A stretch of DNA of 55,128 nucleotides, filler included, from Perkinsus olseni (GCA_013115125.1; 3 parts of 3 records of this genome joined end to end with filler, not necessarily neighbours in it), one strand, 5' to 3'; shown: positions 1,187 to 51,443, numbered from the whole stretch's first letter. The notes: generated by a model from the letters alone, not told the origin. Numbers and translations: made by a program.

Positions 1187-3751
1187 TTACAGCAGATCTA
1201 CGAGGCTGCCGCTGCTCGTTGTGGTTGTAGCTGTCGTAGTCGCGGAGGAACAAGTGTGACTCGAAGGCGGCGTCCCCGCTGGGCATCTGCCAATAACAAT
1301 GATTAACAATTGAAGCCTATCCATTTCATAGTCTGTTCTGGCATAATGGACGTGATTCATGCCTTTCATTACGAAGGACGTAGGTTCAATTCCCAAAGAC
1401 ACTCAGTATTCGTTGCGAGACACTTCCACTTTCACGTTCTATTCACGGTTCACTTCTAAGCGTCGTTCCACGTATACACTCATAATTTATGAGTCATAAA
1501 TCGCTGCGGGATACTCTAACTCTAAGGACATGACAGAGCTAACAGTCCCTAAGTGATGAACACTTCCACTACTCCTCAATTTGACAGCCCAAACCCTACT
1601 TTGCCATCTCGGTGTGACTGCGGATGTCGAGAAGATCCGCACTACGGCCGGGCCGCGAACTCGCGGGTGAGCACGAGCCTTCGCTCTCCGACGTATCAAT
1701 TGTAAAGGCTGGGCGAGCGAAACCCTGTATGAAACCTGACACGCGACTCTCAGCGTTAGACCAACGACGAGACACCGTTCTCTGAGCACTGAGGGGAGCT
1801 AGAAGAAAAGAGCCCAGCGCTTTCGACCCTCATTCGAAACGAATAGACAGTGTGATCGTGTGGACAGCGTCCACTGGACATGCAATCCTCATATTTCCCA
1901 GCGCTGGTAGTAACTGTCCCTATAGTACTGAGAGGATTTAATCAGAATCACTATAGCCGTGCTCCAATGACTACATCTGGCCATCCCCACTACAAACACT
2001 TGCGGTGGGCGGTGAACAATTTACAGTCCAAATATGCGAATCGAGCAGAAGTCCATGAGCCCCAAGAAAGCCCTTAAGTACCATCTTTCAACGGTTTGGA
2101 TGCAATCGACGGACCACCATTGCTCGCCACCGTTGCTATTCCGTTCCGGTGAGGACGGACCGCAGAACCAACTGGAAGACCTGAGAGAGGCAACAAAATG
2201 GACGCTCCGTGCGGGGTGAGTCCATATAGGGGCATGTCCGTAGCATGGACGTACACATGGATGTACAGCATAAAACCATGAAGCAGAGTACAAAGCAGAG
2301 TCCGCTGGGAGTGCGTCTGAGCGCTGCATTCTTGGCACGTTGAAGTTGCTAACCAAATCCCCTCGAACCAAGAAACATCGGAACTAGTCTAACTAAGCTG
2401 ACTTCCGGCGTTAGAATTAAAATCGACACCAATGCCGCCGAGAGTCCCCCTTTTTCTGCTCAACCCCAAACAGGAAAAATTCCTATCAGACTATCAAAAT
2501 TCGCGCACGGACTCCAATTCTACCAAGTCGCGGCTCTCTACTACGACGTCAGAACGTGCGACTACTAAACTGCGTTAGCCGGCCTACACTAGACGACCGG
2601 AAAGTTCTGAAGGCGCGAAAACTTCTCCCCCAAAGTACCGCTATAGCCTTTCCTAGTTCTGGCTCCAACTGGCGAGCTCTCTGAGACACTCGATGATGAC
2701 GATGCTGGAGAGGCACCTGAGTAAAATCAGTAGCCCCACAATCACGTAGCCGGACCTTCACCACCTCCTCTGTAGAAGCCATTTCGCTTCGGCGCTGGAA
2801 TCAGCCTCGGCGACCCGTATTTTCTAATAGACTCTTCCGCAGCTCGATAGCGATCCGTGACCAAGTCTCGAACTTCCGAAGCTTTCGCTCTGATCATCCG
2901 AGTGACGCGAGGATCCTCTTTGCTGGTGAAATGGCCAAACAACTAACGAACGAAGGTTACACAATTGGCGAGAAGGTAGTCGGCCTACCACAAGACGCTG
3001 TGTGACGTCAAAGTGCGTGCCGACTGAGCACTCCTTCCAGAGCTCCTGGCTGCCGGTCAAAGCGAGAGCCTCTAGCACAAGCAGGCTAGAAAAGCTTTCT
3101 CTCCAAGAGGCTGACCGACTAAGGCCCCACGCCAGTTGCTGGGAAGAAGTAGCATAGACAAAAAGGCGCAGGTTCGATCCCTAGTACCTCCATCATAGCT
3201 TCTCTAGATCGTCTGCCCTCGTAAGAGGCCCGGCAGATCTTTTCCAAATCGTCCTTCATTTTAAGTGAGCCAATGCCCTCGAGGAAGCCCATGTGGTCCT
3301 CACAAGAAATCAGTCGCCGGACAACCTATTCAAGACGTCCCGATCGAATCACTCTCAACAAGGCCGAACTTGATCGGCCGGTTGTCAGGGCCCCTGTCTC
3401 CAGCGAAACGTAGCGGCAGTCCAATACACGGTCGGTTGAATACCCGGTGTAGTTATTCCAATATGTATAGTTATCACGATGAACTTTGCGAGAGTTGTAC
3501 TATATACCTCTGCTGAGTTGCAAGAGCACTCCCATGTCTTTCACACGCTAAAAAATCAAGGCCAAAAGCGCTCCTGAATTTCAGGAGAGGCAGCAGTGTA
3601 CTGAACGCCTCCAGAGTACCTCAGCCGTCTCCTCAGCATCGCTGTTGATATCGGCCTTATCGGCCGTTGAGATCACTCGAGCCACCGGTCTTAAAATGTC
3701 CGCCACAGTATCCGAGAAGCCTCGAGATGGACGTGTCGCTCCGGTGGGCAT
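1187..3751 (-). CDS. ENTH (epsin N-terminal homology) domain protein, multi-exon
   Basis: Hand-spliced exons from ATG 3751 give ...VVRRLISCEDHMG...DDLEKICRASYE...MMEQLAWGLSRSASWRESFSSLLVLEALALTGSQELWKE...FTSKEDPRVTRMIRAKASEVRDLV, matching the ENTH helical pattern (WR..YKxLxLxEYL..GS; VRxKAxxL). A Ser/Thr-rich tail probably ends SSGSLVDLL* at 1187. The 3' exons are less certain. Confidence 0.7.
1375..1396 (+). promoter_or_regulatory. Orphan B-box / tRNA-3'-half element
   Basis: AGGAC GTAGG TTCAATT CCCAA, no tRNA 5' half or A-box seen upstream. Probably in the last intron of the ENTH gene, antisense to it. Confidence 0.6.
3163..3192 (+). promoter_or_regulatory. Orphan B-box / tRNA-3'-half element in a 49-nt intron
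   Basis: AAGGC GCAGG TTCGATC CCTAG TACCTCC A. Antisense within minus-strand intron 3139-3187 (GT..AG); splicing restores the ENTH frame MME|QLAW. Confidence 0.75.
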
Positions 3752-4904
3752 ACGATTATTACAAAACCCTAGTACTGTGCGTGATGACTAGCGATGGACA
3801 GCCGTGGGCGGTTCCTGAGGTCAATCACTGAGAGGAAGAAGAAGATACGGGCTGTATCTTGCGCCGAAGGAGACACTTTCTCAGCAATATAATTCGACGA
3901 ATATGGTCTACCTGCGGTCACAGTATTATTCGTCATGCTTGTGAACCATATGCGCGTCGCGTGTGAAGGGGACGAAAACGATTTCAATTTTTGCCGAGCT
4001 CAGTCGCAAGCCGCGATCCGTTGCAATTTGATTCACAAGCTCTACGCAGGAGATGCAGACCAGAGAGCAACCGTGATCGCTCTTCTTCTAGTTTGCCGCC
4101 GGGGGATACCAGAGCAAGCGGCATGAACCGACTGCTGCCGCTACGACGTACCTGTACTATGCTAAGACAGAGCTACGGACGAGGAATGGCCATCCTGGGC
4201 GTCTCCCAGAGACGGAAACAGAATCGCCGCGTCTCCTGTACAGAGGAGGCCTCGAAGCTTTGTCGCGAGTTATAGAAGACGACATGCCCGCTCATTAGAC
4301 CCTGGTCTAAAGCCCTTGCGCGATGTGCTAAGATCAGTATGTTTCACCTTCAGTTGCCGTGGGCGCAACGCAACTTCAAATTGGCGTCACACGGGCCGTT
4401 CAATAGAGGTTGCGAAAAAAGTATTTCTGGAACTGGTTTTCAAAACTGGTCCTCGTACCGCGTGCGAAGAAATGAGGTTCGGAAATCCCTGAAACTGATT
4501 CAGGAACCAGTTCTCAGTTTCAGGCCCCGTCTAGTGAACGACCCGCCAGATCTTGCAGTTGGACATATTAATGCTGCCTTACGTGCCATACCCCACCCTC
4601 GAGCAAGGATTCGTACCCAAGACGCATTGTATGCGATTACAGGAGCAGATGTGGCGCAAAGCCTTGCCCATCCTGGAGCTGGTTCTCGGTAAGCTGGTGA
4701 CCGCTCGTGTATAGTTGGGAGACGCTGAGGCCCACGAAGAATCAAAAATTTGGTGTTGAGATCATGAAAGTCAAAATTTGATGAAAATTATTTATTCAAT
4801 CCGAGCAGATAGTCGTGGCCAACTGCGTCATGGACTAATCAGTGTATAGGAGAGTAAATGAGAGATCGATAAAACGGAAGAACCTACCGGGAAGATGAAG
4901 AACA

Positions 4905-6178
4905 TTTTGATCGATGAAAAAGTTCGGGTAGTGCTAAAAAACGTGATAGCACCACTATAAAACTTATTACGTATTATAATGTCGATTCTGGTATGCGATT
5001 ATGAATATATAGATAGACTCGAATCGAAACAATGCAGGGGTAATAGCTTCCCTTGAGTACGCCGCGAGCCTCGTGCCAGTGAAGATTTCACGAAGCTGAT
5101 GCTGAGCCCCGGGATTGAACCCGGGACCTCCTTAAACGTGGTAAAATGACGACTAGGATCGATTCTGAGTTCCAGGAATTGTTCATTGAACAACCGCAGA
5201 CTCTCACTTTTTCGTGCACGTAGTGCGTTATATTCGGTGTATCCCTGCGAAGCGAAGTATATCTAGCCTGGGCGGTATTGCTCTTTCTGTTCAGTGGAAG
5301 ACCCGTCGCCACCACCGGAGGCCTGGGAAATGATAGTAGGTGCTTACTATTAACCGTTTGGGAACTCATGTCCATGGCTGAGTGGAATACTGAGATTCTA
5401 CCTATCTTAAACTACACTGATAAAGTCATTCACTAGCGTCAAGCTGAGCTAAGGTTCCATAGTTGTGCACTCGCACAACTACATTTACGTCCAGCCCCGA
5501 CACAGTGAGCGTATAAGGTTATCCAAGGTACATTCAACCCTCCTTCAAGTAGCCCGGCACGAGATCTCGAGAAATGCCGAGGGGCTCTGTCCAACAGAAC
5601 TGCTTATACTTCAAGAGATGTGCAACTACGCTAGAGAACAAATGGTGAAATGCCGAGGCGAGACGCAGACCACGTTCATTGATTCGTCTCAGATGAACTC
5701 GTCAGCGCTGCCCGATTATACCCTCCCTGTGCGGCCCTTCCGGCCATGTCGATTCACTTCGCGTTATCCCGCTAACAACCGACGCCGTGAGCGGGCGTTC
5801 ACAGAAACGCAAGAATCTCCAAAGGTACGTTGATGACCTATCGGTGTGGCTCATAGATTAGAGCATTCCTCGGGGCCTAGTTGGAAACACTCAGGCCCTG
5901 GATGCACATAAGGTACCGTCAGAGCTCACGTTTTTGAGAGAACTTCTGTCCGAGGTGGGTCTGGATTCCAGATAGTCTCTCGCTACATCAACAGCGACGA
6001 CCGGCTTGAATTGGAGCTCTACGAATCCCCGGCGATCGAGTATCTTGCAGGCCCTAGTGAGCGTTCAGTGCCAGCCCCTGTCGCGCGGTATAGATGGGAC
6101 CATCAATTCTACGACGATAGCGAGACAGGTGACAATATTGACGACTACGCGCCTACCGTAACATTGAATGGTCGATAG
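4905..6178 (+). CDS. Hypothetical multi-exon protein (start uncertain)
   Basis: Coding-like segments TRIETMQ|GIDSEFQELFIEQPQ, VHSTLLQVARHEISRNAEG and a terminal exon ...FERTSVRGGSGFQIVSRYINSDDRLELELYESP...NGR* separated by GT-AG introns. No family recognised. Confidence 0.35.
5100..5129 (-). promoter_or_regulatory. Orphan B-box / tRNA-3'-half element
   Basis: Minus strand AGGTC CCGGG TTCAATC CCGGG GCTCAGC A. No anticodon or D arm upstream. Probably within plus-strand intron about 5040-5156. Confidence 0.7.
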
Positions 6179-7810
6179 AACGCCATCGGAGTGGTGGCAA
6201 CACAGTTTTACCCTCTGTGCGAAGACTTTCCCTATACTCTCAACGATTGCCGGTCGTGGCTTGTGTTTCCTAGGCTGACTGTGCTGAAACTTTCAGCACC
6301 TTTCTCCCCTTTCTTTTTTTCCAAGTCAGGAAGGGCCGCCAAGTCACCAAGTGAGTGTTATCTCGACAGGTTCTCGGTCAAGTTTACGCCAGCAGTCCAT
6401 CACAATCACATTAACGATAATTCTCACACCGAATTCTCCATAGATGTCTGTACCTGTTGTTGAATAACTGCATAAGGCTTGTTTCGTTTCGTACCAACAC
6501 GTCGGGATTCATCAAAAGCTCACCACAAGTTTTTAGGATCTTTCTCTGATTGCTGTGAGCAGCTGTCGCAGGCTGAAGGCAGTACTCGAAAAAGCGCGAA
6601 ATCTGTCACAGCGATCAATACTTTGCCGCTTGTTCTCCTGACTAGAGGCAATCCGAGTCATCTCGGACCAGGCTGGGAGTCAGAGCTGACTACGAGCTCC
6701 GTGGCGGGATGCTCACGGTCCCAGTCTCGCTCTGAACTCGCCACAGAACTGAGGTTCGCGAGCACAGCATACGGGGTCTCGATCCGGAGGCAAACGAGTC
6801 GTTTGAAACGACCGCTGCGTTTGTTGGAAAGTCATCCGTTGCAATGAGGGCGGGAGTCCCAAAGGATGATCTCTGAGGATCTCAAATGTGCACGCGTGCG
6901 GTTCCCGTAGTGCACGCACACCCAAGCTGCATTGCATACCCGATCCACTTAGCGCTGAGCCTCGATCGGACTACACCTCGGGCTGAGTAGTTGTGGATTC
7001 GAGACCCTGTACGCTGTGTTCTTCCACATGTTAACAACAAAACTCTAGCGTGTCGCACAGAAATTCCCTGCGAGAGTGGAGGTTACATCCTACACGCGTG
7101 CTACACAGTAGCACGCGAACACATCGAGTGTTGTGGGATACAGACTTATATGATGTCGCCATCGTCACATGGCCAATGCCTACGAACGATCGTCCATAAT
7201 AATGTGCTGATCCTTGATAAGCTCTGGCAATGTGGCAAGGGGACAGCTATGAGAATAGCTAAGTCGCAGAGTTACTATTTGAGTTCGTCGGACGAACTCT
7301 TACTCAATGTGTACGCATATCCGCTGGCGCGCCGAAACCGGACGGCTCTTCAACAGTCTCTCTAATGATCCAGTTCAGATAATCCCTCTCCACCAGTCCA
7401 GTGGTGCCTTCCACTACGACACTGGTCGTGGGCCCTGACTCCCTGACAAAGGTAGATCCATCTAACGTTAGTACCCGCCTACCTAAGGGAGTAGAATACG
7501 CTCGTGGTGACAAGGTGCCCTGCCCGGCCAGTTGTCCCGTTCCGCTGAGCGTCATTTCGATAGTTGAAATTAGGCCCATTGCATGACTACTCTTTGCGTG
7601 AGCGAGATATCATCGTATCCAACAATCTCGTCTACAAATCTGTACGTTACGTGCCCGACTTCACCCCCAGATGGTTCCATCCATCCAAGATAGAGTCCCG
7701 CAAGATCGGCACAGTGCTTCCGGGCGTGACGCAGAGCAGCGTGACGCGTTCTGTAAGCTAGCGCAGCGGGAAGCGTATCCATTTACCTGAAGTGCGGTTT
7801 GTGCTCTACA

Positions 7811-8563
7811 ATGAAGTCGATAGCTGTGGTTTCGTTCTTGTTGTTCGTCACCGGTGCCGCCCTCACAAGTGACTCAGCCGGGACCACAAGACGTTTGGTT
7901 CCGGGCTCTGTTGTTTATCCTAAGGGGTGCTCCAAGGACAAGAAGTCCAAAGAAGAACCTTTTTGTGTCGTGGGTACCTTTGATTTCACGAACGCCTTGA
8001 AGCTGTCCGTGACTACTTACCTTTTCGACCTCGAAGACGCACCTAAGTCCACGAGTTTACACTTCGATATGGCTATCAAAGACTCAGCCCCCGCTGGTCT
8101 GAACGTCACAGGTGGAGGTTGTGCCAAGGTTGCTGATAAGAAGGAGCTTGACGATATAGTGGAAGGAGCGGTCGTCCTCTGCACTGAAACGGTGGGGGAC
8201 GGCGTCGGGAAGTATGACCCCACAACAGGAGACTGGAGCGCTGACCTCCTAGTGAAAGCGTTTGTTGAAGCTAAGGCCTTCGGATCTGACTTCATCACAT
8301 TGCCCGCGATCTCCAAAGTCGTCACCGCTCGTATGGGCCCGAACTACGACTTCGGTGTTGATGCTTCCTTCGAGGAGTCCACTGGCGACGAGGATGACAA
8401 GGGGATGTCGATCGCTTTCGACCTCACTATGAACAACAAGGACGGGTCCATAACCACTTGGGAGCTCAATGGTGCCGCCAAGTTCCGCGTGTGGTGGGAT
8501 CCGTTCTTCGATAAACATCCCGAAGCTGAACTGTTCAGCAAAGTCTTCGACCTCAAGCTATGA
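7811..8563 (+). CDS. Secreted protein, tandem family copy 1 (about 250 aa, intronless)
   Basis: Signal peptide MKSIAVVSFLLFVTGAALT. Blocks EPFC, GLNVTGGGCAKVADKKEL, DASFEESTG, KGMSIAFDLTM, WEL, WWDP shared with copies 2 and 3. Confidence 0.85.
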   Translation: MKSIAVVSFLLFVTGAALTSDSAGTTRRLVPGSVVYPKGCSKDKKSKEEPFCVVGTFDFTNALKLSVTTYLFDLEDAPKSTSLHFDMAIKDSAPAGLNVTGGGCAKVADKKELDDIVEGAVVLCTETVGDGVGKYDPTTGDWSADLLVKAFVEAKAFGSDFITLPAISKVVTARMGPNYDFGVDASFEESTGDEDDKGMSIAFDLTMNNKDGSITTWELNGAAKFRVWWDPFFDKHPEAELFSKVFDLKL

Positions 8564-9566
8564 GTCATGGCCTATGACCGTCGAAACCTATGCGTCTTCG
8601 CGGTGGGTCTAGGGCTCATTGTCGCTAGTACTGCACCCGTCGCAGCGCTCTCCTTTTTATGTCAACGATTTTATGGACACCGTCTCAGATTTTATCGTAA
8701 ACATCTCCTTTTTCGTGGACACAACCAACAATGTCTTTTCATGAGTAGTATCCACTGGTTACAATAGCCGGCAGGTGAGCAGTTTCGTTTGATGGGAGCG
8801 TAGCAACGCTCGCTCTTTTCATATCATTGAGCTCGTACTCTGTCACCTAGAGTACCCCAGAGTCACTAGTCATTGATGGACTCATTCAGTCACTAGTCAT
8901 ATGTTAACATGGTTGAGTTTGTTACCAGTGGTTCTCGGTGTGAGAGATTTCCATCACAGCCTTCAGAGGGAGCCAATAGGCCACCGACTGAGTCCCCAGT
9001 AAGATCGACCCCGAAGAACGCCTGCGAGTTGAGGGACTTGAGCACCGCTGCAGAGCGCCCGTTCGCGAATCTGGCAGGTAGATTGGCAGGTACAGTAGAT
9101 ATCAGCTCGTTCCACTCGAGCTGGCCAGCATTGAGAATTCGCATGGAAGTCAGCAGTTCCTGGTGCCCCCGAGACTTGTCTTTGCTGAGTGGTGGGCGAA
9201 GAGCACCGCTGTGATGAAGCCCTTATGACACCCATAATGGGTGATCCATGGCAGCCTCAGCCGACGAGTTTCCGGGAATAATCACGAGGAAGTCTTCGAG
9301 CACTACGCTTTTTGATTGACACTATCCAGCCCCAAACTCGCTCCATAACTGGACCGGCACGGGCCTTGGGGGCTTATGTCGGCAAAATATCAGTTCCGCT
9401 CGCCATGTCACGACATTAGAGACACTCGCCTTGCTTGTTGATCAGCGCCCTTACCACATTCCGCACCTTACATTTCATCAATGACGACACTTGTATCGAC
9501 TTTCTTCGCGTGGCACGATCGTGCGTGCACAGCTCAGCGCAACGACGAGCTTAGAGTTTTCTCTCG

Positions 9567-10349
9567 ATGAACAACTTAACGCAGTATTTTGCAATGAAGT
9601 TGATAGCTCTGGTCTTCCTGAACTTCATCATCAACGGGATAGCTTCCGCCGACTGGCCCGCCCCAAAGATGCCCCTCAGACATTGGCCTAAGGGTCCGTT
9701 TTCCCATCCCTCGGCATGTACCGGGGAGATGAAGCCTAAAGACGAGCCCTTTTGTGTTGTGGGGACCGTCGACTCGGCGCCCATTCAGAAGGTTTCCATC
9801 GGGATATATATCTTCGACGTCGAGGACGCTCACAAGTCCACTCATTTGCAGTTTGATATGGCTATCAAAAATTCAGTTCCTATTGGTCTGAACGTCACTG
9901 GTGGAAGTTGTGCCAGGGTTGCTGACAAGAAAGAGTTACATGATGCAATGGAAGGCGTGGTCACCCTCTGCACTGAACCTGTGGGGGACGGCGTAGGCCA
10001 CTTTGATCGCAGAACTGGATACTGGAACGCTGAGTTCTCGGTGAAGGCTGACGCTGAATGTCTTGTCTTCGGGAACGAGTTCAACAAGATATCTTCCATC
10101 TCGAAGGTCGTTACTGCTCAGATTGGCCCGAACAAGAACTTCGCCTTCGATGCCTCGTTCGAAGAGTCTACTGGCGACGAGCGCAATAAGGGCATGTCGA
10201 TCGCCTTCGACCTCACTATGAAAGCGAGAGACTCCCGTTTGTCCAGTTGGGAGCTCAAGGGAGCCGCGGTGTTCCATATATGGTGGGAACCTTTACTCGA
10301 TCATCTCTTGGAAGCCGAGTTGTTTCATAGACTCTTTAGACTATCATAA
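9567..10349 (+). CDS. Secreted protein, tandem family copy 2
   Basis: Paralogue of 7811-8563 with the same conserved blocks and cysteines. Likely start at the second Met (9594, MKLIALVFL). Confidence 0.85.
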   Translation: MNNLTQYFAMKLIALVFLNFIINGIASADWPAPKMPLRHWPKGPFSHPSACTGEMKPKDEPFCVVGTVDSAPIQKVSIGIYIFDVEDAHKSTHLQFDMAIKNSVPIGLNVTGGSCARVADKKELHDAMEGVVTLCTEPVGDGVGHFDRRTGYWNAEFSVKADAECLVFGNEFNKISSISKVVTAQIGPNKNFAFDASFEESTGDERNKGMSIAFDLTMKARDSRLSSWELKGAAVFHIWWEPLLDHLLEAELFHRLFRLS

Positions 10350-11749
10350 TAAAGACTATCGTAGAATCCTCACAGGCCGCAGTCACGTGTCATTGACGCG
10401 GTGGAGCCGTCAAATCTGAGACAAGAATCTTATTATTTCAATTCTCAGAGTGTTTTCAAGGTTTGATAGAGTCTTTCAGACCGAAGTTCGACGTGACTAA
10501 GTGCGGTTGTTGGGTTGCTGAGTACAGCTCGCGGAGGAGTTTAACTGGCTAGGGGAGACAGTCATCGAAGACGACCTTCGACACGACGGTTGCAGAGTGC
10601 TCGATATGCACTCGCCTTTGATCTCGTACTGCATCCTGTAGTATTAACCACACGCCGCCAGTGCGATAAGTTATCGTCGCGTGTGTGTGCTCATAGTCAA
10701 CCACCAGTTCCGGCTCAGTTGGACTCTTGCCGGTGTTCTCAGTTAGGGGCTCCTAAGCTGTTGCCACCAAGGGTAGAGCTTTGCAAAACAAGTATTTCGG
10801 GTTCGATATAAAGTTTGGGAGCCCCGCAGCTTGAGGCGCCTCGTTTTACTGCTGGATGGTTTCCCGGGAACTGAGATCATCTTCATTTCTTTTCGTGGCC
10901 TTCCAGAAAGAATCCGAGAATCCTCTGAGCCGCTATAGTCTCTTGAAAGGATCCAGTGACTCAGATTTGTGAAGGGCACGCGAGGAGAGCTGAAAAATAG
11001 CATACGCGCGAGTGTCAGTTCGAAATTCGAAGAGCTGAGTGACGCAAATGAGTTCCGGAGTACATCAACTCGGAGGGTAAATAGAGTCTTCGTCTTTCGA
11101 GCTTATTCTTTCGAGGGGAATTCGCTACAGATATATACACAAGGAAAGATTGGCGTATGATGACCATAAGTATTCATATTGGCTCGAGCCTGGCGGGTCC
11201 TCAGGGTCCCACAAGCTGGGGACTACATGTGCAACAGTGCTAGCACAGCTACTAGCTTAGCTGCTAGTGCCCCAGCTCGATCAAGATCGATAGCAACGGG
11301 CTCTTGGGACTTAGGAGTCTTACTAAGCAGCTGTTCCGATGGTGAAAGAAAGGAGAGAGCGAGAGAACTCAGGCTTAGTGTCCCCCAATGTTCATAAACC
11401 GACTGGCGGTGGCACCACGGCTGAAGCGTCACACTGACGGTCTGTCGTGAGGTCAGCGCACTGCTCGCGTGCTGCATGCTGTGCGAATCCCTATAGAGAA
11501 TCATAACAATCCAGTTCATAATCTTCTGTCATATACGGGTGGGATATAAAAAAAGAACAGCTTAGCTTGCCCACACTCGACAGCCAGCCAGTGCGACCTC
11601 ACTTTTGTCCGAACTCCCCAGGCAAATAGTAGCGTTTTGCGAACGTACACAGGGTCGCGTTATTGATACGCAGTCAAAGCTGCTTAGTTTAGCGTGGAAC
11701 ATCAGCGTGCTCCTTTACAATTGACGATAAGACATATTTGCTTGATATT

Positions 11750-12505
11750 ATGAAGTCGACGGCCCTGGTCTTCATCCATTGCATCATCGGTTCTACCGCC
11801 CTAGTCGTTGATTCAGCGAAGCCGTCCCTCGAAGGATCGTCTAGGGCAAACTTCTCTTACCCGCCGGGTTTTACTGGCAGCAAGAGACCTAATGAGAAGC
11901 CCTTCTGCTCTGTGGGGAGTATTGACTTTTCCGAAGTTGACAAAATATCGACGACAGTCTACATCTTCGACGACGCTGACTCTTCAAAGTCCACCCATTT
12001 GCACTTCAATATGGCCCTGACGAAAGACTCAACCCCCATTGGTATGAACGTCACGGGTGGAGGGTGTGCCAACGTGGTGGACAAGAAGGAGCTAGGTCTA
12101 GTGGAGGGAGCGGTAGTGCTCTGCACTGAGACTATTGACGAGGGCGTCGGAACCTACAACATGCAAACTAAGCAAGCCGAAGTCGATTTCCTGTTGAAGG
12201 CCGACGCTGAAGCTCGTGTACTTGGGTATGACGTGATCGAAACGCCCACAGTCTCCAAAGCCGTCACTGCTCATATTGGCCCGAACAACGACTTCGCCTT
12301 TGACGCCTCCTTCGAGGAGTCCACCGGGAACAAGAAGAAGAAGGGCATGTCGATTGCTTTCGACCTCACTATGAACACTAAGGACCATTCTCTGTTCACT
12401 TGGGAGCTCATGGGAGCACTCAAGTTCCACGTCTGGTGGGAGCCGCTCTTCGATGAGCACCCCGAAGTTGAACTCTTTGACGAAGTCTTCAAAATCAAGC
12501 TATGA
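11750..12505 (+). CDS. Secreted protein, tandem family copy 3
   Basis: ATG at 11750 (MKSTALVFIHCIIG), same conserved blocks as copies 1 and 2. Confidence 0.85.
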   Translation: MKSTALVFIHCIIGSTALVVDSAKPSLEGSSRANFSYPPGFTGSKRPNEKPFCSVGSIDFSEVDKISTTVYIFDDADSSKSTHLHFNMALTKDSTPIGMNVTGGGCANVVDKKELGLVEGAVVLCTETIDEGVGTYNMQTKQAEVDFLLKADAEARVLGYDVIETPTVSKAVTAHIGPNNDFAFDASFEESTGNKKKKGMSIAFDLTMNTKDHSLFTWELMGALKFHVWWEPLFDEHPEVELFDEVFKIKL

Positions 12506-12818
12506 TTATCGAAGCAACTGGCTAGCTTTGTGAGTTCAAACCCGGTCTAGCTAGCCGTTCAGCGGCTGAACTTCAGCCTCATCGGCGCTTCACAACATTT
12601 CCCTATTATATTCACAGTTTTTAGTCTCACTCGTCAGAAGAGTCTTGGAGACTCATTTTCAAACCTAATCAGGACTTTTTGTGCTCATAGTCAACAGTGC
12701 TTGATACGGACAGCGTTTCCCTTTTCCTGGGTTACCATAATTTGGCGAGTTTCTGGTCCTCACAGATTGATAGCATGACGAACACAACGAGTACTCAGCA
12801 GAGAGAGACACATAAAGA

Positions 12819-21223: not shown

Positions 21224-21910
21224 ACAGTTTCTGCAGCAAACGTGTTGTGACTATATGTATCAGGCGAGATAACGATGAATAGGTTGTGGTATGGGCAGCT
21301 GCATTAGAAGATAGCCACATCAGAATTGGGATATAATTCCAGAGAGATGGCAATACATATCACACGGAGCAGCATCGCTGTTGGTACCGGACAAATCGTT
21401 GGTAAAACATAAATATACAGCGGGATGTGAAGCGTTCTTACATGCAAGTGGATGCAGACTGAAAGCAACTGGATTTTGGCTCAGGCGCGGCGGGCCTCGT
21501 CGTAGAGTAAATCTACTACTGGGGTTGAACCGTGTATTGTCACATATACCCAAGCATAGCCGAGGAGCATGCTCAGGATGTACTGGCGGTTCAACCAGGG
21601 TTGGGACAAAATCTCTACAGTACCGAGTGAGGGGTGGCAACGGACTATTCTTGCCATGCTCGCGCGTCATGTCGCAACCCAGAGGTTGAAGCGAGTCCAC
21701 GATGAATATTATGCCTTGTAACTCTTTCTCTATGTCCTGCACGTAGATCCGTGCATTTATTATCAACCCAGGGGTCAGCCCAAGCTGATGCGTCCCTCTT
21801 ACCCTGCTGGGTTCTCCAACTGACACTGATACACGACATGCTGTAAACAAATCAAGAAAAACCAGGTCAAAATGATGAATGGTACTACAACCCTACAGAA
21901 AAGCTCCTAA

Positions 21911-23522: not shown

Positions 23523-23535
23523 CAGGGGACAACTA

Positions 23536-23570
23536 AGGACGCAGGTTCGAACCCTGGTAAACCCATTTTT
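23536..23570 (+). promoter_or_regulatory. Orphan B-box / tRNA-3'-half element
   Basis: AGGAC GCAGG TTCGAAC CCTGG TAAACCC A followed by TTTTT. Begins about 14 nt upstream of the ATG of the TPM-RING gene, antisense to it. Confidence 0.75.
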
Positions 23571-23699
23571 CCGCTGATCACAACTCAATACAATGTGGGA
23601 GAGAGAAACGATACACTTCTAATTCTTTCCAGACACTAGACTGATCCATGGTAGTACACATAGCACCGATACTTGCGACATCTTGCTATCTTACTATTC

Positions 23700-25819: not shown

Positions 25820-26099
25820 AATGAGGGATCCTGACTACTGACACCTGTACTGGGCATGGGCATGGCATTGAACAATGAAGAACGCAAGAGGTTGAATCGA
25901 AGGGAGTCGCTGTAAGGAAATGTTTGAGGTAAATGATAATTATTATTATTATGCAATGGAGTTGATGATGGTATGGTAGTATTTCATCCATAATGAACTG
26001 ACAGAGCAATCGGTGTAGAGGGTTGCCAGCGGCCACCTCTCGATAAAGCAACAATAACAACTACAAAAAACAATAACGGTAATTGTGCAATTTAAAAAG

Positions 26100-29000: not shown

Positions 29001-31400
29001 CCCTATCCTGCTTAGAGGGAGGAGGACGTCTTGGTCGTCGTAGGGATGGAGGTAGGTTGATGATATCAGCGGAGTTAGAGAAATTATGGTACTCTGTATG
29101 TAGTAGTACCACTACAAAGAACTGTGCTAGACGTGCGTCGGAATATATATGTGGGTCAAACTCCGTTGCCAAGGATAATGCCCTGATGATAGATCAGCTA
29201 CCCACCTCTGTGAACGGCCCCAGTTCATGATACTACCGTAGTATCTTGCGGATCCTTCTCGTATGAGTATCAGGTTTCCGAAGACACCTAACCTGTAATA
29301 GACTATATATTGGAATTGAATACCACACCAATAGAATATCATAATGACAGTAATACCTGTTTTCGTCGCCTACGCCTCGGTCTATGTGCCCCCGCCTTGG
29401 CAACCCACGCTAAACACTGACGCCATCCTATCCAGAGTACATGTCAACGACATGACGCATACCAGTGTTACGATACTACCTCCCTTCTGTTGGGCACTGG
29501 TGAGCCTCTGCTCGTTGGAATCCTCTCTATCAGACTCGGTACACGTCACGTAATCCATATACTGAGGAAGGAATAACCTCACAAAGAATTGAACTAGGGA
29601 CCTTTCCATTACCGAATCCCATTCCGAAGTAGGTATATCCGCACTACTGCTATCCGATAGTTCGCCCTCTGCCACTGGGCGTGGTTCCTGTAGGGCCTGC
29701 CTTACTACTGTTGGCTCATCGCAGCCTACTGTAAGGCCGAGTGTTGGGGAGTAGCAGGAGTTCGGAACTGCAGACCACAACCAGATAGGACTCGTGCTTT
29801 TGAGTGAAGATAATAATACCGCATGATCTGTTGCTCCCTGATGGTAGTAAATTATAAAAAGATCTCTGACGATGATGACCGTGGTGGCCGCTCCCCTCTT
29901 CATAACTATCGGACGAGGATGACGATGACGCCGATGACACTCGAGTATCTGGGAGGGTTAGAAGATGATATATGAGTGTACCCCCCCCCGCTACTACTTC
30001 GTCGCGTTAGAAAGTTATCCCAGCCTCTTACAGCCTCGGTCATGAATGAAGGTTGTCGTGATGTAGGTGGTTGTTGTTGCTGATGTTGACGCACTTCCCT
30101 TAGTGATACCGTAGGCATGTTACTCCCCACAGTAGCATTAGCTACCGATGACGTTGAATTGGTACTGACAATCTCATCAAAACCATCGAAAAGGCCTGAG
30201 AGCCGGCTCCTGATTACAAGTGTCATCAGAACCCTTACTACTACCATTAGGAAACTCCTCTGGGAAGTGCGCCTGTTGTTGCTGCTGATCAATGGTGGAC
30301 TGTTTAGGAATCCTTCTATGCGCGTTAGATGGCGGCACAGCGAGAGAGTTCGCGGATGACCTACTAATGAGCAGTGGTATAGAGAATGCCAATCTTAAAC
30401 CAACAAAACTTAAACCAACAACTTATCGTTCCTCCACCCCAATACTACCTATTCCCTACTTCATCCGACATCCAACCTCTAGACAGCATATCGCCATTAG
30501 AAACACTCCCCTCACCATGTGTTGATGATGAGGACGACGATGAAGCTGCTGCTGCTGCTGCTGCTGCATTCAGAGATCTCATGTCGACATAACTGATAGG
30601 GTAGACACCTCTGCCGACAGAAAGTCGTAAATGTTGAGAATAATCCTTATCGTTGAGGAATCGAAAGAATAGCAAGATTGTTGGCAGCTCTGCACGCGTG
30701 GTCATCATTTTCTTTGTGATCATCTCGACGTCATCTCTATTACGGCGCTCTCGGTGAGCGTGTTATATGATACCCGAATATCCTACCTACTTCACTACAG
30801 GAGCCACTCCGCTAAGGTCTAACACTGCTAGATCCTCAGCCTACACCAAGCTACACAGTACTACTAGTCTATCGACCGTTCTACGTTATATCCATCACTT
30901 AGGTTGCGGAAGATCCACATACAAACTAGTTATATGAAGGGTATTATTCCAGGATGGTGTAGTAGGATAGAGGAGAAGTCATCTTTCAGTACTAGTCATG
31001 CTAGGAGCCCCGATCCACGGAAATTGTGGTATCAGATGACGAGCCTACCGTAGGCAGTAGCTGCTCACCTACCAGCTCTACCCCATCAACCAAAGATTCT
31101 CCTACTATTGCCCAAGATCCAGTAGGCTGCTTGGTATTCCAGTGTGAACTTGCTGAATGAGTTCAGGTACCCGGTAAAGACGTGAAGGAAGGGATGAATG
31201 AAGCATCATCTTTGGAAGATATATCTTTCAAGTGGGCTGCTATTAAGCTAAGTCTCTTTACAGCTTGTTATTGCTGTAGGTGCCGCACGAGTGTATACCA
31301 TAACCGCCGACGACGACGACGCAGTGGATCTCCTTATAGGCCAGTAGACTGTTGAGCTCATCCCATAACCATCGGACACATCTCATTTTCATACTCAAGT
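26100..31400 (-). CDS. Large multi-exon membrane protein, tentatively anoctamin (TMEM16)-like; boundaries approximate
   Basis: Hydrophobic exons plus segments EFDPHIYSDARLAQFFVVVL, PNFPELRSLGRDLNRP and VTPGFPKDIEKKFIR in the order of anoctamin motifs (DY.EM..QFG, NxxEIR.D..K..RRP, IPD.P). Similarity is weak. Confidence 0.45.
27800..27828 (+). promoter_or_regulatory. Orphan B-box element in a 51-nt intron
   Basis: GGCAC CCAGG TTCGAAC CTGGC ACCCCTA (palindromic core CCAGGTTCGAACCTGG) within minus-strand intron 27779-27829, whose removal deletes an in-frame stop (KDIEK|KFIRV). Confidence 0.7.
29586..29603 (-). promoter_or_regulatory. Relaxed B-box element in a 51-nt intron
   Basis: Minus strand AGGTC CCTAG TTCAATT C inside predicted GT-AG intron 29562-29612. 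Confidence 0.55.
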
Positions 31401-31521: not shown

Positions 31522-31943
31522 ATGAGAAGAGGAGGTGTATATGGAGTATTTGTAATAGCCCTCATCGTCTTCGTTTGTCAGGCCCAGTGCTCTGATTCGA
31601 TGGACTCGAACCAAGTTCTGCCCTGAGTGTGGAAAGTATAAGGTTGGAGACACCAAAGGTAGACACTAGGCCCATTGCTTTGTCTCGTCGAGTCCTTCGT
31701 ACGTCACCGTCAGAGGATATGATCAGTGCATGCGATAAAATGTGGAGAAAGTATATGAGGCTCAGTGACTCTCACTGTCCTTTGTGGACACAATGTCGGG
31801 TAGGTGCTTTGGGAACGATAATTCGTAGTTCGTAGTTCGTGGTGGCGATGGTGGAGTGTGCTACGTAGGTTAAAGTGATAGATGGGAGTGATAAGGAGGT
31901 ATCGCTGTGGGAGCGCATGCCTCGAATTATTGGCCGCAGCTGA
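31522..31943 (+). CDS. Small hypothetical protein with N-terminal hydrophobic segment (4 exons)
   Basis: Splicing at GT-AG sites yields MRRGGVYGVFVIALIVF|VGDTK|EDMISACDKMWRKYMRLSDSHCPLWTQCR|VKVIDGSDKEVSLWERMPRIIGRS*. Confidence 0.45.
31591..31620 (-). promoter_or_regulatory. Orphan B-box element in predicted first intron
   Basis: Minus strand CAGAA CTTGG TTCGAGT CCATC (perfect GGTTCGAnnCC), antisense within predicted plus-strand intron 31573-31642. Confidence 0.6.
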
Positions 31944-36292: not shown

Positions 36293-36472
36293 GGTGGAGA
36301 CCTAAGTGCCTCAGGTCCTCTCCACACCACCCACTGGGTGGCACCCAGTCGACTAAGTTTGGTAATATATCTATAGAAGAGGTTACACGTGAGGATCACT
36401 GAAGCCATAGTTGACGCCGTAGCAACTCCAACTCGACGCATGATCTAATGCATATTTCGAATGATAGTGCAA

Positions 36473-36546
36473 TACTGGGACCGAGAGTCGAACTCGGGAT
36501 CTACTGCGTGTTAGGCAGTCATCATAACCAACTAGACCATTCCAGC
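36473..36546 (-). tRNA. tRNA-Val(AAC)
   Basis: GCTGGAA TG GTCT AGTTGGTTA TGAT G ACTGC CTAACAC GCAGT AGATC CCGAG TTCGACT CTCGG TCCCAGT A. Full cloverleaf with one A-C mismatch in the acceptor stem. Confidence 0.88.
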
Positions 36547-36646
36547 AAGCTGAAGAGACATCTCATTCCGTGGTCCCGGTGAGCTCCGTGATCTTAAATG
36601 CCCGTCTACTATATAGGCCGTGCTCAGCAGCAAGACACCTAATCGT

Positions 36647-36718
36647 GGGCTGAGTCGAGAATCGAACTCGAGACCTCTCGCACCCAAAGCGAGAATCATA
36701 GCACTAGACCACACTGCC
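36647..36718 (-). tRNA. tRNA-Pro(TGG), possibly a pseudogene
   Basis: GGCAGTG TG GTCT AGTGCTA TGAT T CTCGC TTTGGGT GCGAG AGGTC TCGAG TTCGATT CTCGA CTCAGCC C. Anticodon and T arms intact, but two acceptor-stem mismatches and D-loop GG changed to GC. Confidence 0.75.
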
Positions 36719-36788: not shown

Positions 36789-36888
36789 NNNNNNNNNNNN
36801 NNNNNNNNNNNNNNNNNNNNNNNNNNNNNNNNTTAATTAATTAANNNNNNNNNNNNNNNNNNNNNNNNNNNNNNNNNNNNNNNNNNNN
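36789..36888. other. Assembly gap with artificial six-frame-stop linker
   Basis: N-run + TTAATTAATTAA (36833-36844) + N-run. Confidence 0.95.
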
Positions 36889-39800
36889 GCGCCTGCCGAA
36901 CTACGGCAGGCCTCGCAATTCGAGCGAAGAGGACTCACATGAGCCACTCTGCGGTGCCATCGTCATCGATGATGTCGGCGACGACGGCTTGAGGGCAACC
37001 ATTCGACTGGACAGCACCTGGCTCTCCTCAAGTGGTGCACAGTTCTATCGGTGGATCACAAAGGAACAACATACTCCAAGCAGGATGGGAATGCATGCCA
37101 ACTACTCTAAACCTCACTCTGCCAAGTCCTGGTATATGCGACAAGGTTTTCTGGCTCTACAGCTTCTCATTGGCCGCTTCTTCGAGCATCGTCATGTGGG
37201 CGACCTCAATAACCTCACAGAGAGCGATTACGTTCTTGAGTGGACCGAGCTTGACCGTTACAGATTCGTTCCCTTCCCGTCCGCACCTCACCCGTCAAAC
37301 CCTGGCCTCGAAAGTTTATTTGACCTCTACGACCTCTTGTACTGGGCGTTCGCCTTTGTTGTGGCTGTACAGGCTGGCGAGATAGTCAGAGAACGTGAAC
37401 GTAGACACTTCATGAGAATCAGTGGTGGCCTGCAAGATCGGGTGTACCACACTGCCCTGTTTGTATCAATCCTGGTCACCTGCGCCGTCGCCAGCATACT
37501 CATGACTATCACTCTCATCACCTCGGTCTTCCACAACTCCCAGTTTTTCGCAACATTCCTTCTATTGTTCCTGATCGGCCTTGCCTCCGTCGAATTCGCC
37601 TTAGCTGGCTCTGCGTTCTTCTCCTCCGAGCGACTAGCAGCTCTCATTGTGTTTCTCATTTACGGTTGCACGGCTTTTATCATCGAGGTGAGTCCTTAAT
37701 CAGCAACAGCTGAGTCACTCTCACTTGGATACATAGCTCTGGTCAGACGGTAGCCTCTTCCCTTCAGGTAGAGATAAAACCAGGCCTTTGCATTCTACCC
37801 GGAGCAGCAGCTCACGTAGCAATGAGGCTCATGGTCCACCTCGAGATAACTCAGCGAGGGGTTACCTTTCATACTTACGACGAGGAAGTGTGGGGAGTCT
37901 CTCCCGCTGGTCTCGTGTTAATCTCCCTATTGTCGGCCCTTTTGTGGTGGTGTGTCTTCTATTACGCTGAGCAAGTCATCCCCTATGCGGGAATCGCCGC
38001 TCCCACTCGGGCGTGGTACTTCCCTCTCTCACCAGCGTACTGGAGGGGTATATTCACTCGGACTTCCCGAGAGTCTCAAAGCCTATTAACGTTTCGGGAA
38101 GAGGGCGGCTTAGTCCTGAACAGCGTAACCCGGCAATACTCAAAAGGGGTCGTAGGCATCCGTTCGGTGGCCATGAAGGCCCCGCAAGGCAGGTGTACAG
38201 TCTTACTTGGCAGAAACGGTGCCGGCAAGAGCACACTAATATCATTAGTGGTGGGGACGCAGAACCCTACAGAAGGGAGCATACTGTCTCCGCCTGCTAG
38301 CCGTATTGGCTTCTGTCCGCAGCGCTCTGTCCTTTGGTCCGAGCTGACCATCGCCGAGCACGTTGACTTGTGGTGTGGCTTGAGAGGTCGGAGCTCTCAC
38401 GACGACTGCTTAGCGCTTGCTAGGGAACTCAACCTTGATGAACAATGGGAAGTCCAAGCGGGCAATCTGTCTGGAGGTCAGCGACGCTGCCTCTCCGTCA
38501 TGCTCGCTTTCGCGGGAGGCCCTGAGCTAGTGGTACTTGACGAGCCTAGTACGGGCTTGGACGAATCTGCTCGGAGGAAGCTCTCTCAGGTGGGGTTGGA
38601 TGCTCTCGACCGCTCGTGAGCTCCGGCGTATCTCCAAGTTACTTGAACGACGGTGAAACCTGGTCCTTCTACCTCAGGCTATCCTCAGAGCGAGAACTCC
38701 ATCTCGAGCGATTTTGGTATCGACGCACTACATGGATGAGGCGGAGTACATAGCGGACGAGGTGGCCCTTCTAGACGACGGACAGCTCATCGCCAAGGGG
38801 AGTGTTCCGGAGCTTACCAGCTCCCTTGACTCCTCATTGGTGCTCCGAGCCATCTTCCGGCCCGACGCAGACCCAAGTCAATGCATTACCCTGCTAGCGC
38901 GCAAGCTAGCAGCAAACGGCATTCATTCACAAACATGTGCCACCGCTGGGCGCAGTGCCTCGATTGGACTCCGCCGTGGGTCTAGTATCAAGGACCAGGA
39001 CAAAGCCCTGCGGATAGTTGAAGACTCTCTCGACGAGCTACAAATCGACACCTTCTCTGTTTCGACTGTAAACCTGGGCCATTTCTTCGACTGGGTGACT
39101 GAAGCCTTGGGGAATTCCCCAGGTTTCGGAGACGAGCGTACATTCGAGGCTTGCAAGAAAGGCTCTCAGCTCGAAGACACGGATGACTGCTCTCAGCTCG
39201 AGGCCGATCATCACCTCCCTGGACTACGGAGGCAGTTATCGGCGCTTCTCGTGCGAAGGAGACTGACGCTATATACGAGAGAGTGGATCGGGACGTTAGC
39301 TCTCCTCGCTATCCCCGCGTTAGTTATGGTCTGCCTTTTCGGTCTGATCGAGCTCGGGGAAAGAATCATATCCTGTCCACCGTATTCGGTCAGTGACTTG
39401 ACAGGAGTGGCTTCTGCCATCGAGGAACCGCTAGTCATACCGGTTGCTACCGCGGACGTTGCCTCAACCCTCCCGACAGCTACTGAGGGAAAGTTCCACT
39501 TCGATATAGTCAACTCCAGCACAAGTCAAGACTTCTCAGATTATCTCTTGAGTACGTCCCTACACTCTTCGTTGCCTTGTCAAAGCGGCATTTGATGGTC
39601 ACCTATCAGGTTCGCGGCATAGTCGTAGTACCAATAATGTCGGTGCATTCTTCCGACAGAGAAGTACATACCAAATATGGCACAACACGACCTACCACCA
39701 CAGTGCCCCTGCCTTCACATCTATTGAGGTTAATCGTCGACTGGAAAGCATGAGGGCTCCCAGGATAACCTTCGTCAACCACCCGCTGCCCATTGCCAAC

Positions 39801-42053
39801 TTTGATGGTCTACAGCTCGTCAAGGGTGAGTCCAGGCCCTGGATGCCCCTGAACCGTTCGATTCGAGTTCACCGTCGCCACCGCTTCTTCAGGAACCATC
39901 TTGGTTGTTGCAATCGGGATCGCTATGTCGTTAATCCCGGGCCCAGTTATCTCCTTCGTTGTCATGGAGCGTTATTCTGGCGTGACCGATCAGCTTCTGG
40001 TTGCAGGAGTTCGGCCTCTGTCCTACTGGAGCTCTAACTTAGCAGCGGACTTCCTCTGGGTCGGCCTCGGAGGAACAGCTGTGGTCCAGCTCATGCTCCT
40101 CGCCTTCAATTCTGAGCCATTCACCATCAGTTTAGACTGGACCATCGTCACTTTCATGTTACTGGCTAGCTTCTCTCTTTCTGTATTACCGGCTACATAC
40201 CTTCTTTCTTTCCTTTTCCTCGATCGCACAAGAGCTTTGGTCGGCACCATCGTAAGCGGTATTGTTCTCACTACCATTGTGGCGACGGGCGTCTTCGCTG
40301 TCGGCAACCTCGGGTCCGAGGATTGCGAATCCTGCTTCGATATCGCTAGCTCCGTTGCTTGGTGTCTCCATNNNNNNNNNNNNNNNNNNNNNNNNNNNNN
40401 NNNNNNNNNNNNNNNNNNNNNNNNNNNNNNNNNNNNNNNNNNNNNNNNNNNNNNNNNNNNNNNNNNNNNTGCCTTGCCGCACTTCTCGCTCGGAAACGGG
40501 CTCTTGAAAGCCGTCTTCTGGGGCACGACATACAAGATCAGTCCGTGGTCTTCGCATATCTTGAATAATTGCGAGTCCGTGAACCGCGGGAGGAAAGAAG
40601 CGTGCATTGCTGGCCCCCTCGATAATGTGCCCCTTCTGGTCATCCTGGCTCCGGTATTCTTTGTCCTTGTTCTTTTGTCTGATTATATCCGCGGTAAGGT
40701 CCGAGGTCGCCAGTCTGGTGCTTTCCTCGACCATGAAGATGATGGCTCGTCGACGGCCCTGGTACGAATGCAGAATGTATCAAAGAACTTTGGCGGCAAG
40801 GAGGTTGTCAACGAAGTGTCTCTGGACGTGGAGGCCGGAGAGGTCGTCGGATTCCTCGGGACGAATGGTGCTGGCAAAACTACCTTGTTCAAGCTGATCT
40901 GTGGGTTGGACACCCCCAGTAGCGGTGCTATATCCATATGTGGAAACAATGGGGGTACTTCGAAAGCACGCATGCACGTCGGCTACTGCTCGCAACAAGA
41001 TGCCCTATGGGACTCTCTATCGGCGAGGGAACATTTGATCATCTATAGCCGACTCCGAGGTCACAACGATGGGCGATGTATGATGGTGGTCGATAGACTC
41101 ATCGCTTACATCGGTTTGAGCGGGGAGGTTGCTGATCGTCCTTCGGGTGAACTTAGTGGAGGTGATCGTCCGGCAATCGCATTTGCTGTTCTCCCCGGAA
41201 TCGCAGGTAACCGACGTAAACTATCTATGGCGATTGCCCTGGTTGGATCACCCAGCGTGATTCTAGTGGACGAGCCCACCGCCAGGATGGATCCAATATC
41301 TCAACGGCCGATTTGGGAACTAATAGGGAAGATGGCAGCGACAAAGGACCGAGCAGTTGTGAGCCATCCGATGCGATCAACTGTTGAATGATTTGGTCCT
41401 TATGGCCCCGCATGACTCCCGCATCCTCCGTAGATACTCACCTCACACAACATGGAGGAAGCTGAAGCGGTATGCTCTCGGTTGGTTTTCCTCTCACGAG
41501 GGAGAATACAGTGCGTCGGAACTCGTCGAGTGGCTCATGAGGCACTCATAAGGCACCTCATCAACTCGAACTACATTTCTGCCTGGTAGAGCCCGTGAGG
41601 TGGCGAAGAACCCGACTCTGTACGCCCGGCAGGTACTCGCCTCAGTGCCAGGTTTGGGTTGTATGCCGATTCGCAATTGATGGTGGCGACGGTGAGGAAG
41701 TGCGAGAACTAGCGGCAAAGGTCGCTTATGAGTCGCCAAATTCGTGCCTGCGGCTCTTGGAGATTCACAACTCGATCGCTCGCTACAAGACCGCTGTGGA
41801 TGCGTTGCTCCCAATCAGCATTCTGTGGACGTGGCTTAGCGCTAACAAAGAGCGATATCATTGCCCGCAGTATGCAGTCACTCGATCGTCACTCTCCCAC
41901 GCCTTCAACGCAATGGCCGGACAATGCTCCAGTGGCCCTGCTCGAGGTTTTCGCATTATCGGGAATCACCATCCATTACTGTGTTCTAGTTGGGGTGTCA
42001 GTCGTAGAATGAGTATAATGGGTCAGCCCATGGATGGGAAAGGTAAGTTCTGA
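36889..42053 (+). CDS. ABC transporter subfamily A, full-size (TMD-NBD-TMD-NBD), 5'-truncated by gap, multi-exon
   Basis: NBD1 GRNGAGKS / LSGGQRR / VVLDEPSTGLD / STHYMDEAE. NBD2 GTNGAGKT / LSGG..RRKLS / ILVDEPT / TSHNMEEAE. TMD motifs IVRERE..MRISG and VVMERYSG..QLLVAGV..SYW are typical of ABCA. Confidence 0.93.
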
Positions 42054-42059
42054 ATTTGT

Positions 42060-46465: not shown

Positions 46466-46497
46466 CATATGCGTTGGAGTTCGCACTTAACCCGGGC

Positions 46498-46527
46498 CCC
46501 GGGTCCCGGGGTTTGAACCTGGGACGA
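46498..46527 (-). promoter_or_regulatory. Orphan B-box element
   Basis: Minus strand TCGTC CCAGG TTCAAAC CCCGG GACCCGG G. No tRNA 5' half. Just upstream of the Cys-rich gene. Confidence 0.6.
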
Positions 46528-48855: not shown

Positions 48856-48930
48856 GGAAGAGCCCAGAAAAACTAAATGCCCACGACGAGGCTACCCGAG
48901 AGTGTTAACGCAAAAAGTTCCCTACAAATA

Positions 48931-51330: not shown

Positions 51331-51414
51331 TCATGAATAAGGGAGAGAAGGTAGAGCGAGTTTGAGACGAGCGAGAAAAATCACGTAGTCGGCGACCCCT
51401 GACTCCAGTGGGAA

Positions 51415-51443
51415 ACCACCGGCTCGGGTCGAACCCGAGCTCC
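51415..51443 (-). promoter_or_regulatory. Relaxed B-box element upstream of phnA
   Basis: Minus strand GGAGC TCGGG TTCGACC CGAGC, also a perfect 7-bp hairpin. Confidence 0.4.

Follow-up and report, generated by a model that had tools for sequence, protein, structure and literature searches.

tRNA-Like Fragments With Orphan B Boxes in Short Introns and Gene Flanks of Perkinsus olseni

Results and Discussion

A Family of Orphan B Boxes

We analyzed a stretch of 55,128 nucleotides (nt) from the alveolate Perkinsus olseni (hereafter, the window) and identified a family of eight short, dispersed elements that carry a B box within tRNA-like flanks and lie outside the real transfer RNA (tRNA) genes. 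Four of them make up most of the body of ordinary spliceosomal introns. We consider it slightly better than an even bet (a probability of about 0.55) that these orphan B boxes are the recognizable remains of a dispersed family of tRNA-gene-derived fragments that have survived in non-coding DNA. In a tRNA gene, the internal promoter comprises an A box at positions 8–19 and a B box at positions 52–62. The window is P. olseni nuclear DNA, because its long open reading frames (ORFs) are interrupted by short GT..AG introns, its ABC-transporter ORF is 78% identical to a P. olseni protein, and the annotated P. olseni protein P0122 (836 amino acids) can be placed on its minus strand as 14 exactly identical blocks.

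The motif GGTTCRANNCC occurs 11 times on the two strands of the window, compared to 0.83 on average and at most 4 in dinucleotide-preserving shuffles, none of which (0/100) reached 11. Two of these matches (52684 and 54363) fall inside real tRNA-Thr genes, leaving nine orphans. An earlier reading of the same DNA, made from the sequence alone (the sequence-only reading), had listed these nine and claimed that they exceed chance, and both statements hold. It had further described a longer tRNA-like context in most of its exact and relaxed sites. We recovered this context at six of the nine exact and two of the five relaxed sites, which together make up the family (1383, 3171, 5111, 17935, 23544, 25451, 27808, and 29586); it is missing at 21521, 31602, 12530, 14117, and 51425, and marginal at 46509. 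The family members are as follows.

1331–1404, plus strand: o1383, a decayed near full-length tRNA-like pseudogene with its B box at 1383–1393; 24.4 bits
3153–3192, plus strand: o3171, variable loop, T arm, and acceptor 3' strand TACCTCC-A, antisense to the host gene; 25.9 bits
5100–5140, minus strand: o5111, with a T arm that pairs better than in any other copy (-13.1 kcal/mol); 24.6 bits
17924–17964, minus strand: o17935; 23.4 bits
23535–23565, plus strand: o23544, followed by TTTTT and antisense to a RING/TPM gene; 30.3 bits
25432–25472, plus strand: o25451, tRNA positions ~33–73, acceptor strand CACCTCC, T stem with 2/5 pairs; 25.3 bits
27794–27827, plus strand: o27808, near-palindromic CCAGGTTCGAACCTGG with one mismatch, then CTTTTT; 19.8 bits, -8.3 kcal/mol
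29574–29605, minus strand: o29586, B box with two mismatches, in sense orientation within its intron; 20.7 bits

The scores come from a profile built on these eight sites and applied to the window and to 10 shuffles. The seeds scored 19.8–30.3 bits, the four real tRNAs 9.4–15.8 bits, and 46509 10.5 bits; the next match in the window reached 6.2 bits, and the best scores per shuffle ranged from 4.8 to 7.9 bits. An effect of chance or composition, with about one exact match expected, could account for 21521, 31602, and the three relaxed sites that have no supporting context. For the eight family members it is refuted by the shuffle counts and by the distance between their scores and the shuffle maximum, and as an account of the matches as a whole we find it hardly credible. 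As a class, B boxes with one mismatch scarcely exceed chance: 26 matches, three of them palindrome duplicates, reduce to 23 distinct loci versus ~20.8 expected, and 12530, 14117, and 51425 belong to this chance-level class. The family is “dense” only in relative terms, at eight or nine copies per 55 kb and in 4/32 of the short introns with homology support.

tRNA Likeness and Decay of the Copies

The eight copies align with each other and with the four real tRNAs, the alignable parts being the variable loop (AGGNC), T arm, and 3' strand of the acceptor stem. In pairwise local alignments extending 200 nt to either side, the likeness among copies ended within ~28 nt of the B box and no shared body or tail was found past the tRNA-like part, which gives a unit of ~40–45 nt corresponding to tRNA positions ~33–73. 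The copies are ~60–75% alike as judged by eye and have 5-nt variable loops. Their acceptor strands vary; two of them, CACCTCC and TACCTCC, we take to resemble that of tRNA-Ala.

Structure is poorly retained. Only 26/40 T-stem pairs form in the eight copies versus 5/5 in both tRNA-Thr genes, in agreement with the sequence-only reading that the T stems often cannot pair. Among the outer three pairs, 14/24 are broken, and the energies of the T-arm hairpins range from 0.0 to -13.1 kcal/mol. The B box itself is intact in 6/8 copies, next to heavily altered stem positions. Four copies have GNAGG at positions 49–53, a pattern that suggests common masters rather than independent decay. No orphan was listed at E ≤ 10 by the Rfam tRNA model RF00005 (gathering score 29 bits) in searches of either 55 or 6.3 kb, whereas the four real tRNAs scored 48.3–67.9 bits.

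The copies had been described as having no A box. This is true of seven of the eight, in which the best candidates have 3–5 mismatches to the commonly given consensus, the level of background. The exception is o1383, where TGGCATAATGG differs from that consensus at one position and lies at the canonical spacing of 44; a match as good anywhere in the allowed range was seen at 16/1973 random positions. This copy also folds as a weak 74-nt cloverleaf with 5/7 acceptor pairs (ARAGORN, 80% threshold). Relaxed ARAGORN searches returned 12 calls at 85% and 41 at 80%, compared to 1–13 and 19–32 in shuffles, so that such a call carries no weight alone. For o17935, a 5' strand complementary to the acceptor strand is present, and this copy may be part of a decayed cloverleaf that reaches 18005. 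Because of these features of o1383 and o17935, the family appears to span a range from near full-length decayed tRNA genes to fragments with the 3' part only.

Judged by their sequence, the elements are tRNA-gene-derived fragments and not tRNA genes, classical short interspersed nuclear elements (SINEs), or typical introners. They share with tRNA-derived SINEs their relation to tRNA, a conserved B box, the loss of cloverleaf pairing, and a dispersed distribution; unlike such SINEs, the P. olseni unit stops at the tRNA 3' end, has no shared body or tail, and in 7/8 copies is missing an A-box-like sequence. The sequence-only reading had offered relics of a tRNA-derived SINE or of an intron-generating element as one explanation; tRNA-derived relics fit our observations; neither a SINE body or tail nor the marks of an introner were seen.

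We also considered whether the copies could be functional halves belonging to split or permuted tRNA genes, or other small RNA polymerase (Pol) III genes, since what they contain is only the 3' part of a tRNA-like sequence with its B box intact. The broken T stems (26/40 pairs), the absence of an Rfam tRNA match even in the 6.3-kb search, and the lack of A-box-like sequence in 7/8 copies all speak against this, as does the position of four copies in introns of protein-coding genes, three of them antisense. In addition, the acceptor strands are not the same in all copies, and no 5' half to match them was seen in their vicinity: exons fill the space beside the intron copies, and the 5' parts adjacent to o1383 and o17935 are decayed. 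We therefore regard this explanation as very improbable.

Copies as the Body of Short Introns

Exact mapping of P0122 yielded 11 introns and that of a second P. olseni protein, P0124, a further 22, with 0–2 mismatches. These verified introns (21914–30570) rest on colinearity with annotated Perkinsus proteins; 31 of the 33 are 42–109 nt long, with a median of 51 nt. Together with an intron in an ENTH-domain gene (3139–3187), this gives 32 short introns with homology support. The donors are unusual, beginning with GTAG in 12/33 verified introns and with GTAGTA in 6/33; acceptors are CAG in 23 and TAG in 10. Four short introns contain family members.

25423–25474, minus strand, 52 nt: GT, then o25451 in antisense (41 nt), then CTTCTTCAG; the spliced translation equals P0122 exactly
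27779–27829, minus strand, 51 nt: holds o27808; 0 mismatches to P0124, and P0125 of Perkinsus chesapeaki is identical and gap-free over KDIEKK/FIRVRRGR
29562–29612, minus strand, 51 nt: GTAATGG, then o29586 in sense, then TTCCTTCCTCAG; 0 mismatches to P0124, and P0125 is gap-free over TSEWDS/Y
3139–3187, minus strand, 49 nt, GT..AG, in the ENTH-domain gene: mostly o3171 in antisense; P. chesapeaki P0127 is colinear over ...ME/QLAWGL

The claim that four introns of ~50 nt are filled by such elements is thus confirmed for all four by colinearity with Perkinsus proteins. They are located in three different genes, and the element accounts for 31–41 of their 49–52 nt. Both orientations occur, as had been noted: antisense in three introns and sense in 29562–29612. 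Avoidance of exons, also proposed earlier, is supported where exact gene models are available (8.7 kb, of which exons take up 5869 nt and short introns 1728 nt), with 0/4 copies in exon and three in short introns. The shorter motif GTTCRA or its complement occurs six times in these introns versus seven times in the exon sequence, an excess mostly made up of the known copies.

Apart from their content, the four introns are ordinary. Their lengths (49, 52, 51, and 51 nt) compare with the median of 51 nt for verified introns, and their splice sites are the species-usual GTA/GTG...YAG. The donor follows element position 73 in two introns and lies inside the acceptor strand at 3187. In 25423–25474 and 27779–27829, the two bases that directly follow the tRNA-like 3' end are complementary to the donor GT; this fit may reflect the splice-site consensus rather than tRNA sequence, since GTAGG and GTAGGG match the usual donor (GTAG in 12/33). 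The junction repeats (2, 1, and 5 nt) are no different from those of other introns. Intron 29562–29612 is stop-free in frame, so that its retention would add 17 residues, but a length divisible by three with a stop-free frame is nothing special among the short introns (3/31). The other 28 verified short introns showed no trace of the element, with scores of at most 2.2 bits and uniform p-values. Most introns are therefore not recognizable decayed copies.

These observations bear on the possibility that the introns were born from the insertion of a ~40–45-nt tRNA fragment into an exon and were spliced from the start, in the manner of introners. The large share of the element in four confirmed introns of three genes is in line with this scenario, as are intron lengths that are typical rather than typical plus ~40 nt and the donor GT that complements the bases after the tRNA-like 3' end in two introns. 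However, both orientations occur, the position of the donor in the element varies, and junction repeats do not exceed those of other introns. Copies that are ~60–75% alike do not indicate a recent burst, 28 other verified short introns have no trace of the element, copies also lie outside introns (1383 and 23544), and the ENTH intron is not a recent gain, because it is common to a related Perkinsus sequence (see below). On balance, we consider the birth of introns from fragments unlikely.

Introners of Micromonas, Aureococcus, and Amoebophrya resemble the P. olseni elements in that a repeat constitutes most of the sequence of short introns in unrelated genes; as far as the accessible text describing them goes (PMC7789003), they differ in that the P. 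olseni copies have no inverted or direct terminal repeats, occur in both orientations with variable splice positions, are more diverged, and are partly located outside introns. A full-text literature search found no paper on tRNA-like introns or introners in Perkinsus.

Copies Outside the Confirmed Introns

The remaining copies lie in gene flanks or in DNA with less certain gene structure. Copy o1383 is located ~200 nt past the stop of the minus-strand ENTH gene, downstream of it. Copy o23544 had been placed near a start codon, and indeed it precedes, by 14–46 nt, a Met with which a signal-peptide-like stretch begins. The P0122 model assigns this position to the 3' end of a 610-nt intron, whose acceptor AG (23532–23533) comes immediately after the copy. 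Copy o5111 may lie in a 49-nt candidate intron (GTC..AG, minus strand). For o17935, a 46-nt GT..AG intron on the plus strand, antisense to the copy and found by eye, was rejected, as open frames are lacking on either side. Pfam gave no match for the ORFs near 1383, 5111, and 17935.

Two exact B boxes and one marginal member complete the set of orphan sites.

21521–21531, minus strand: exact B box without tRNA-like flanks, absent from the profile matches; probably chance or decayed past recognition
31602–31612, minus strand: exact B box without tRNA-like flanks, absent from the profile matches
46504–46525, minus strand: o46509, marginal member with a T arm only and no variable loop of the AGGTC type; 10.5 bits versus a shuffle maximum of 7.9

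Directly after the T-arm-like site at 46509 there is a GC-rich palindromic run, CCCGGGACCCGGGGCCCGGG, at 46480–46510 (in minus-strand sense).

An Orthologous Intron and Possible Selection on the B Box

An ORF from a related Perkinsus, P0126, is 83–87% identical to the window in the exons of the ENTH gene and reads through the orthologous intron as VLRFEPVPSDCYSQ, where the read-through of the intron in the window is VLGIEPAPFCLCYFFP. The first eight codons correspond to the tRNA-like part; five of them are identical and three have single-base changes, and 13 of the 16 first and second codon positions agree. TTY-GAR-CCN, which is the antisense form of the B-box core, is retained in P0126. Outside the tRNA-like part, the two introns are of unequal length (42 versus 49 nt overall) and mostly unlike in sequence, and translations read through the following intron have nothing in common. 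Retention of the B-box core in P0126 is suggestive only, as one locus viewed through translation, in which third codon positions are unseen. Metagenome scans returned no orthologous loci.

Such retention would be expected if B boxes were kept by selection as sites for TFIIIC without an A box, located in introns and at gene starts and acting on chromatin or on Pol II transcription, with the flanks marking only their origin. A system of TFIIIC sites was the other explanation offered by the sequence-only reading. Consistent with this, 6/8 B boxes are intact beside heavily changed stem positions, B boxes with one mismatch are not in excess, RNA structure has been lost, P0126 retains the core in the orthologous ENTH intron, and the copy at 23544 lies in the interval that separates two tandem genes, a short distance upstream of the second one. 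On the other hand, the cross-species support comes from one intron by way of a protein translation, and AGGNC, which is outside the B-box consensus, is equally kept, so that a recent common origin fits as well as selection. Moreover, the copies were found by their B box, and its conservation is partly a matter of ascertainment. We rank selection for TFIIIC binding above the birth of introns from fragments, and still as an explanation that is probably not the right one.

The known counterparts of such sites would be the extra-TFIIIC (ETC) sites of yeasts and mammals, which have a B box but no A box or recognizable Pol III gene and lie near Pol II genes. Seven of the eight family copies likewise match the B box and have neither an A box nor a Pol III transcription unit. 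The Perkinsus copies differ in having tRNA-like flanks and, in four cases, a location in tiny spliceosomal introns; the comparison is also one of sequence, whereas ETC sites are defined by TFIIIC occupancy.

The two ideas can be combined: fragments of tRNA genes could seed new tiny introns in which the B box is then selected as an intragenic landing site for TFIIIC. This combination seems doubtful to us, and it ranks below both of its parts.

A Probable Origin as Dispersed tRNA-Gene Fragments

We return to the reading that we prefer, that of decaying fragments of tRNA genes. All copies retain the tRNA 3' end and vary in their reach toward the 5' end, mostly starting in the region of the anticodon loop or the variable loop. 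Reverse transcription of a tRNA or pre-tRNA that stops early would produce such copies, anchored at the 3' side and ragged at the 5' side. The source would be copies of the gene or the primary transcript rather than mature tRNA, since two copies precede a T run and none has CCA. The copies persist only in non-coding DNA, with four in spliceosomal introns of 49–52 nt, one shortly before the start of a gene, and one in a 3' flank. Most of the body of the four introns is provided by the fragment, and their splice sites are usual for the species.

Amplification of tRNA genes is known in the genus: Perkinsus marinus has >500 copies of five tRNA gene types (PMC3706591). In the accessible text of that study, the counts concern intact Ile, Leu, Gly, and Tyr tRNA genes that are targets of Dada transposons. 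The likeness to P. olseni lies in hundreds of tRNA-gene copies in the same genus and in o1383, which resembles a decayed full-length copy, whereas neither 3' fragments nor copies in introns are described in that same portion of the study. The P. olseni fragments further differ in their 5-nt variable loops and an acceptor strand that appears Ala-like.

Several points weigh against this origin. The 14/24 broken outer stem pairs imply ~1 change per 3 sites, if the stems were once paired; the B box should therefore have decayed in most copies, and yet loci with one mismatch number 23 versus the ~20.8 expected. This leaves two possibilities: stems that were unpaired in the sources from the outset, or selection acting on the B box. 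Insertion into existing introns should add ~40 nt, and the intron lengths are ordinary. No target-site duplications above chance were found, flank repeats being limited to 6–7 nt and occurring at the chance rate. Finally, no copying machinery was identified, and the mechanism of copying is one that we infer.

Gene Content of the Window and Gene Models

ARAGORN and Rfam concur on four real tRNA genes in the window (Val-AAC, Pro-TGG, Thr-TGT, and Thr-AGT). They are arranged in pairs, with Val-AAC and Pro-TGG 100 nt apart on the minus strand (36472–36718) and the two tRNA-Thr genes 1.6 kb apart on the plus strand (52633–54386). The latter served for comparison with the copies.

52633–52707, plus strand: tRNA-Thr(TGT), real tRNA; 67.9 bits
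54311–54386, plus strand: tRNA-Thr(AGT), real tRNA; 67.2 bits

A weak match to the C/D-box small nucleolar RNA SNORD74 at 28698–28757 on the minus strand (18.9 bits, E 1.7, far under the gathering score) is probably due to chance.

Protein-coding genes in the window include the ENTH-domain gene (~1600–3750, minus strand), whose orthologue is a P. chesapeaki protein and whose short exons hide it from a view based on long ORFs; three tandem paralogues of a DUF6740 protein (7757–12505, plus strand); and a large ABC transporter gene (36845–42053, plus strand) with two ABC_tran and two ABC2_membrane_3 regions and introns of 47–80 nt. The 3' flanks of the DUF6740 paralogues were too diverged to align and gave no check of the site at 12530.

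Some annotated models appear to merge neighboring genes. In the P0122 model (21914–25819, minus strand), an “intron” of 610 nt (23532–24141) separates two parts, the second of which opens with Met and a hydrophobic, signal-like stretch, and the model probably joins two genes across it. The P0123 model comprises only the first gene of this pair, and the P0125 model from P. chesapeaki merges three neighboring genes.

Other approaches to gene structure were of limited use. Enumeration of ORF flanks was too noisy (1811 and 2724 candidates) and scoring of codon usage was weak. A gene finder based on dynamic programming, which fused genes and was used as a guide only, predicted 94 introns at a penalty of 14 versus five in a shuffle; it found 3/4 of the introns that carry elements and missed 3139–3187.

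Implications

Dispersed tRNA-derived sequences and orphan B boxes are already known in many eukaryotes. Here, unusually, such fragments constitute the body of normal 50-nt spliceosomal introns in a protist whose introns are very short, and the B box is kept where the tRNA structure is lost. If the copies neither bind TFIIIC nor gave rise to introns, they would be markers for dating insertions among Perkinsus species and haplotypes, with a risk of being misannotated as tRNA genes or B-box promoters. If they are bound by TFIIIC, they would represent an alveolate form of extra-TFIIIC sites that is carried by introns, and if the introns arose from the fragments, they would reveal a new source of intron gain. 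Should both intron birth and selection on the B box apply, genes transcribed by Pol II would have acquired, by way of new introns, a Pol III promoter element as one of their features.

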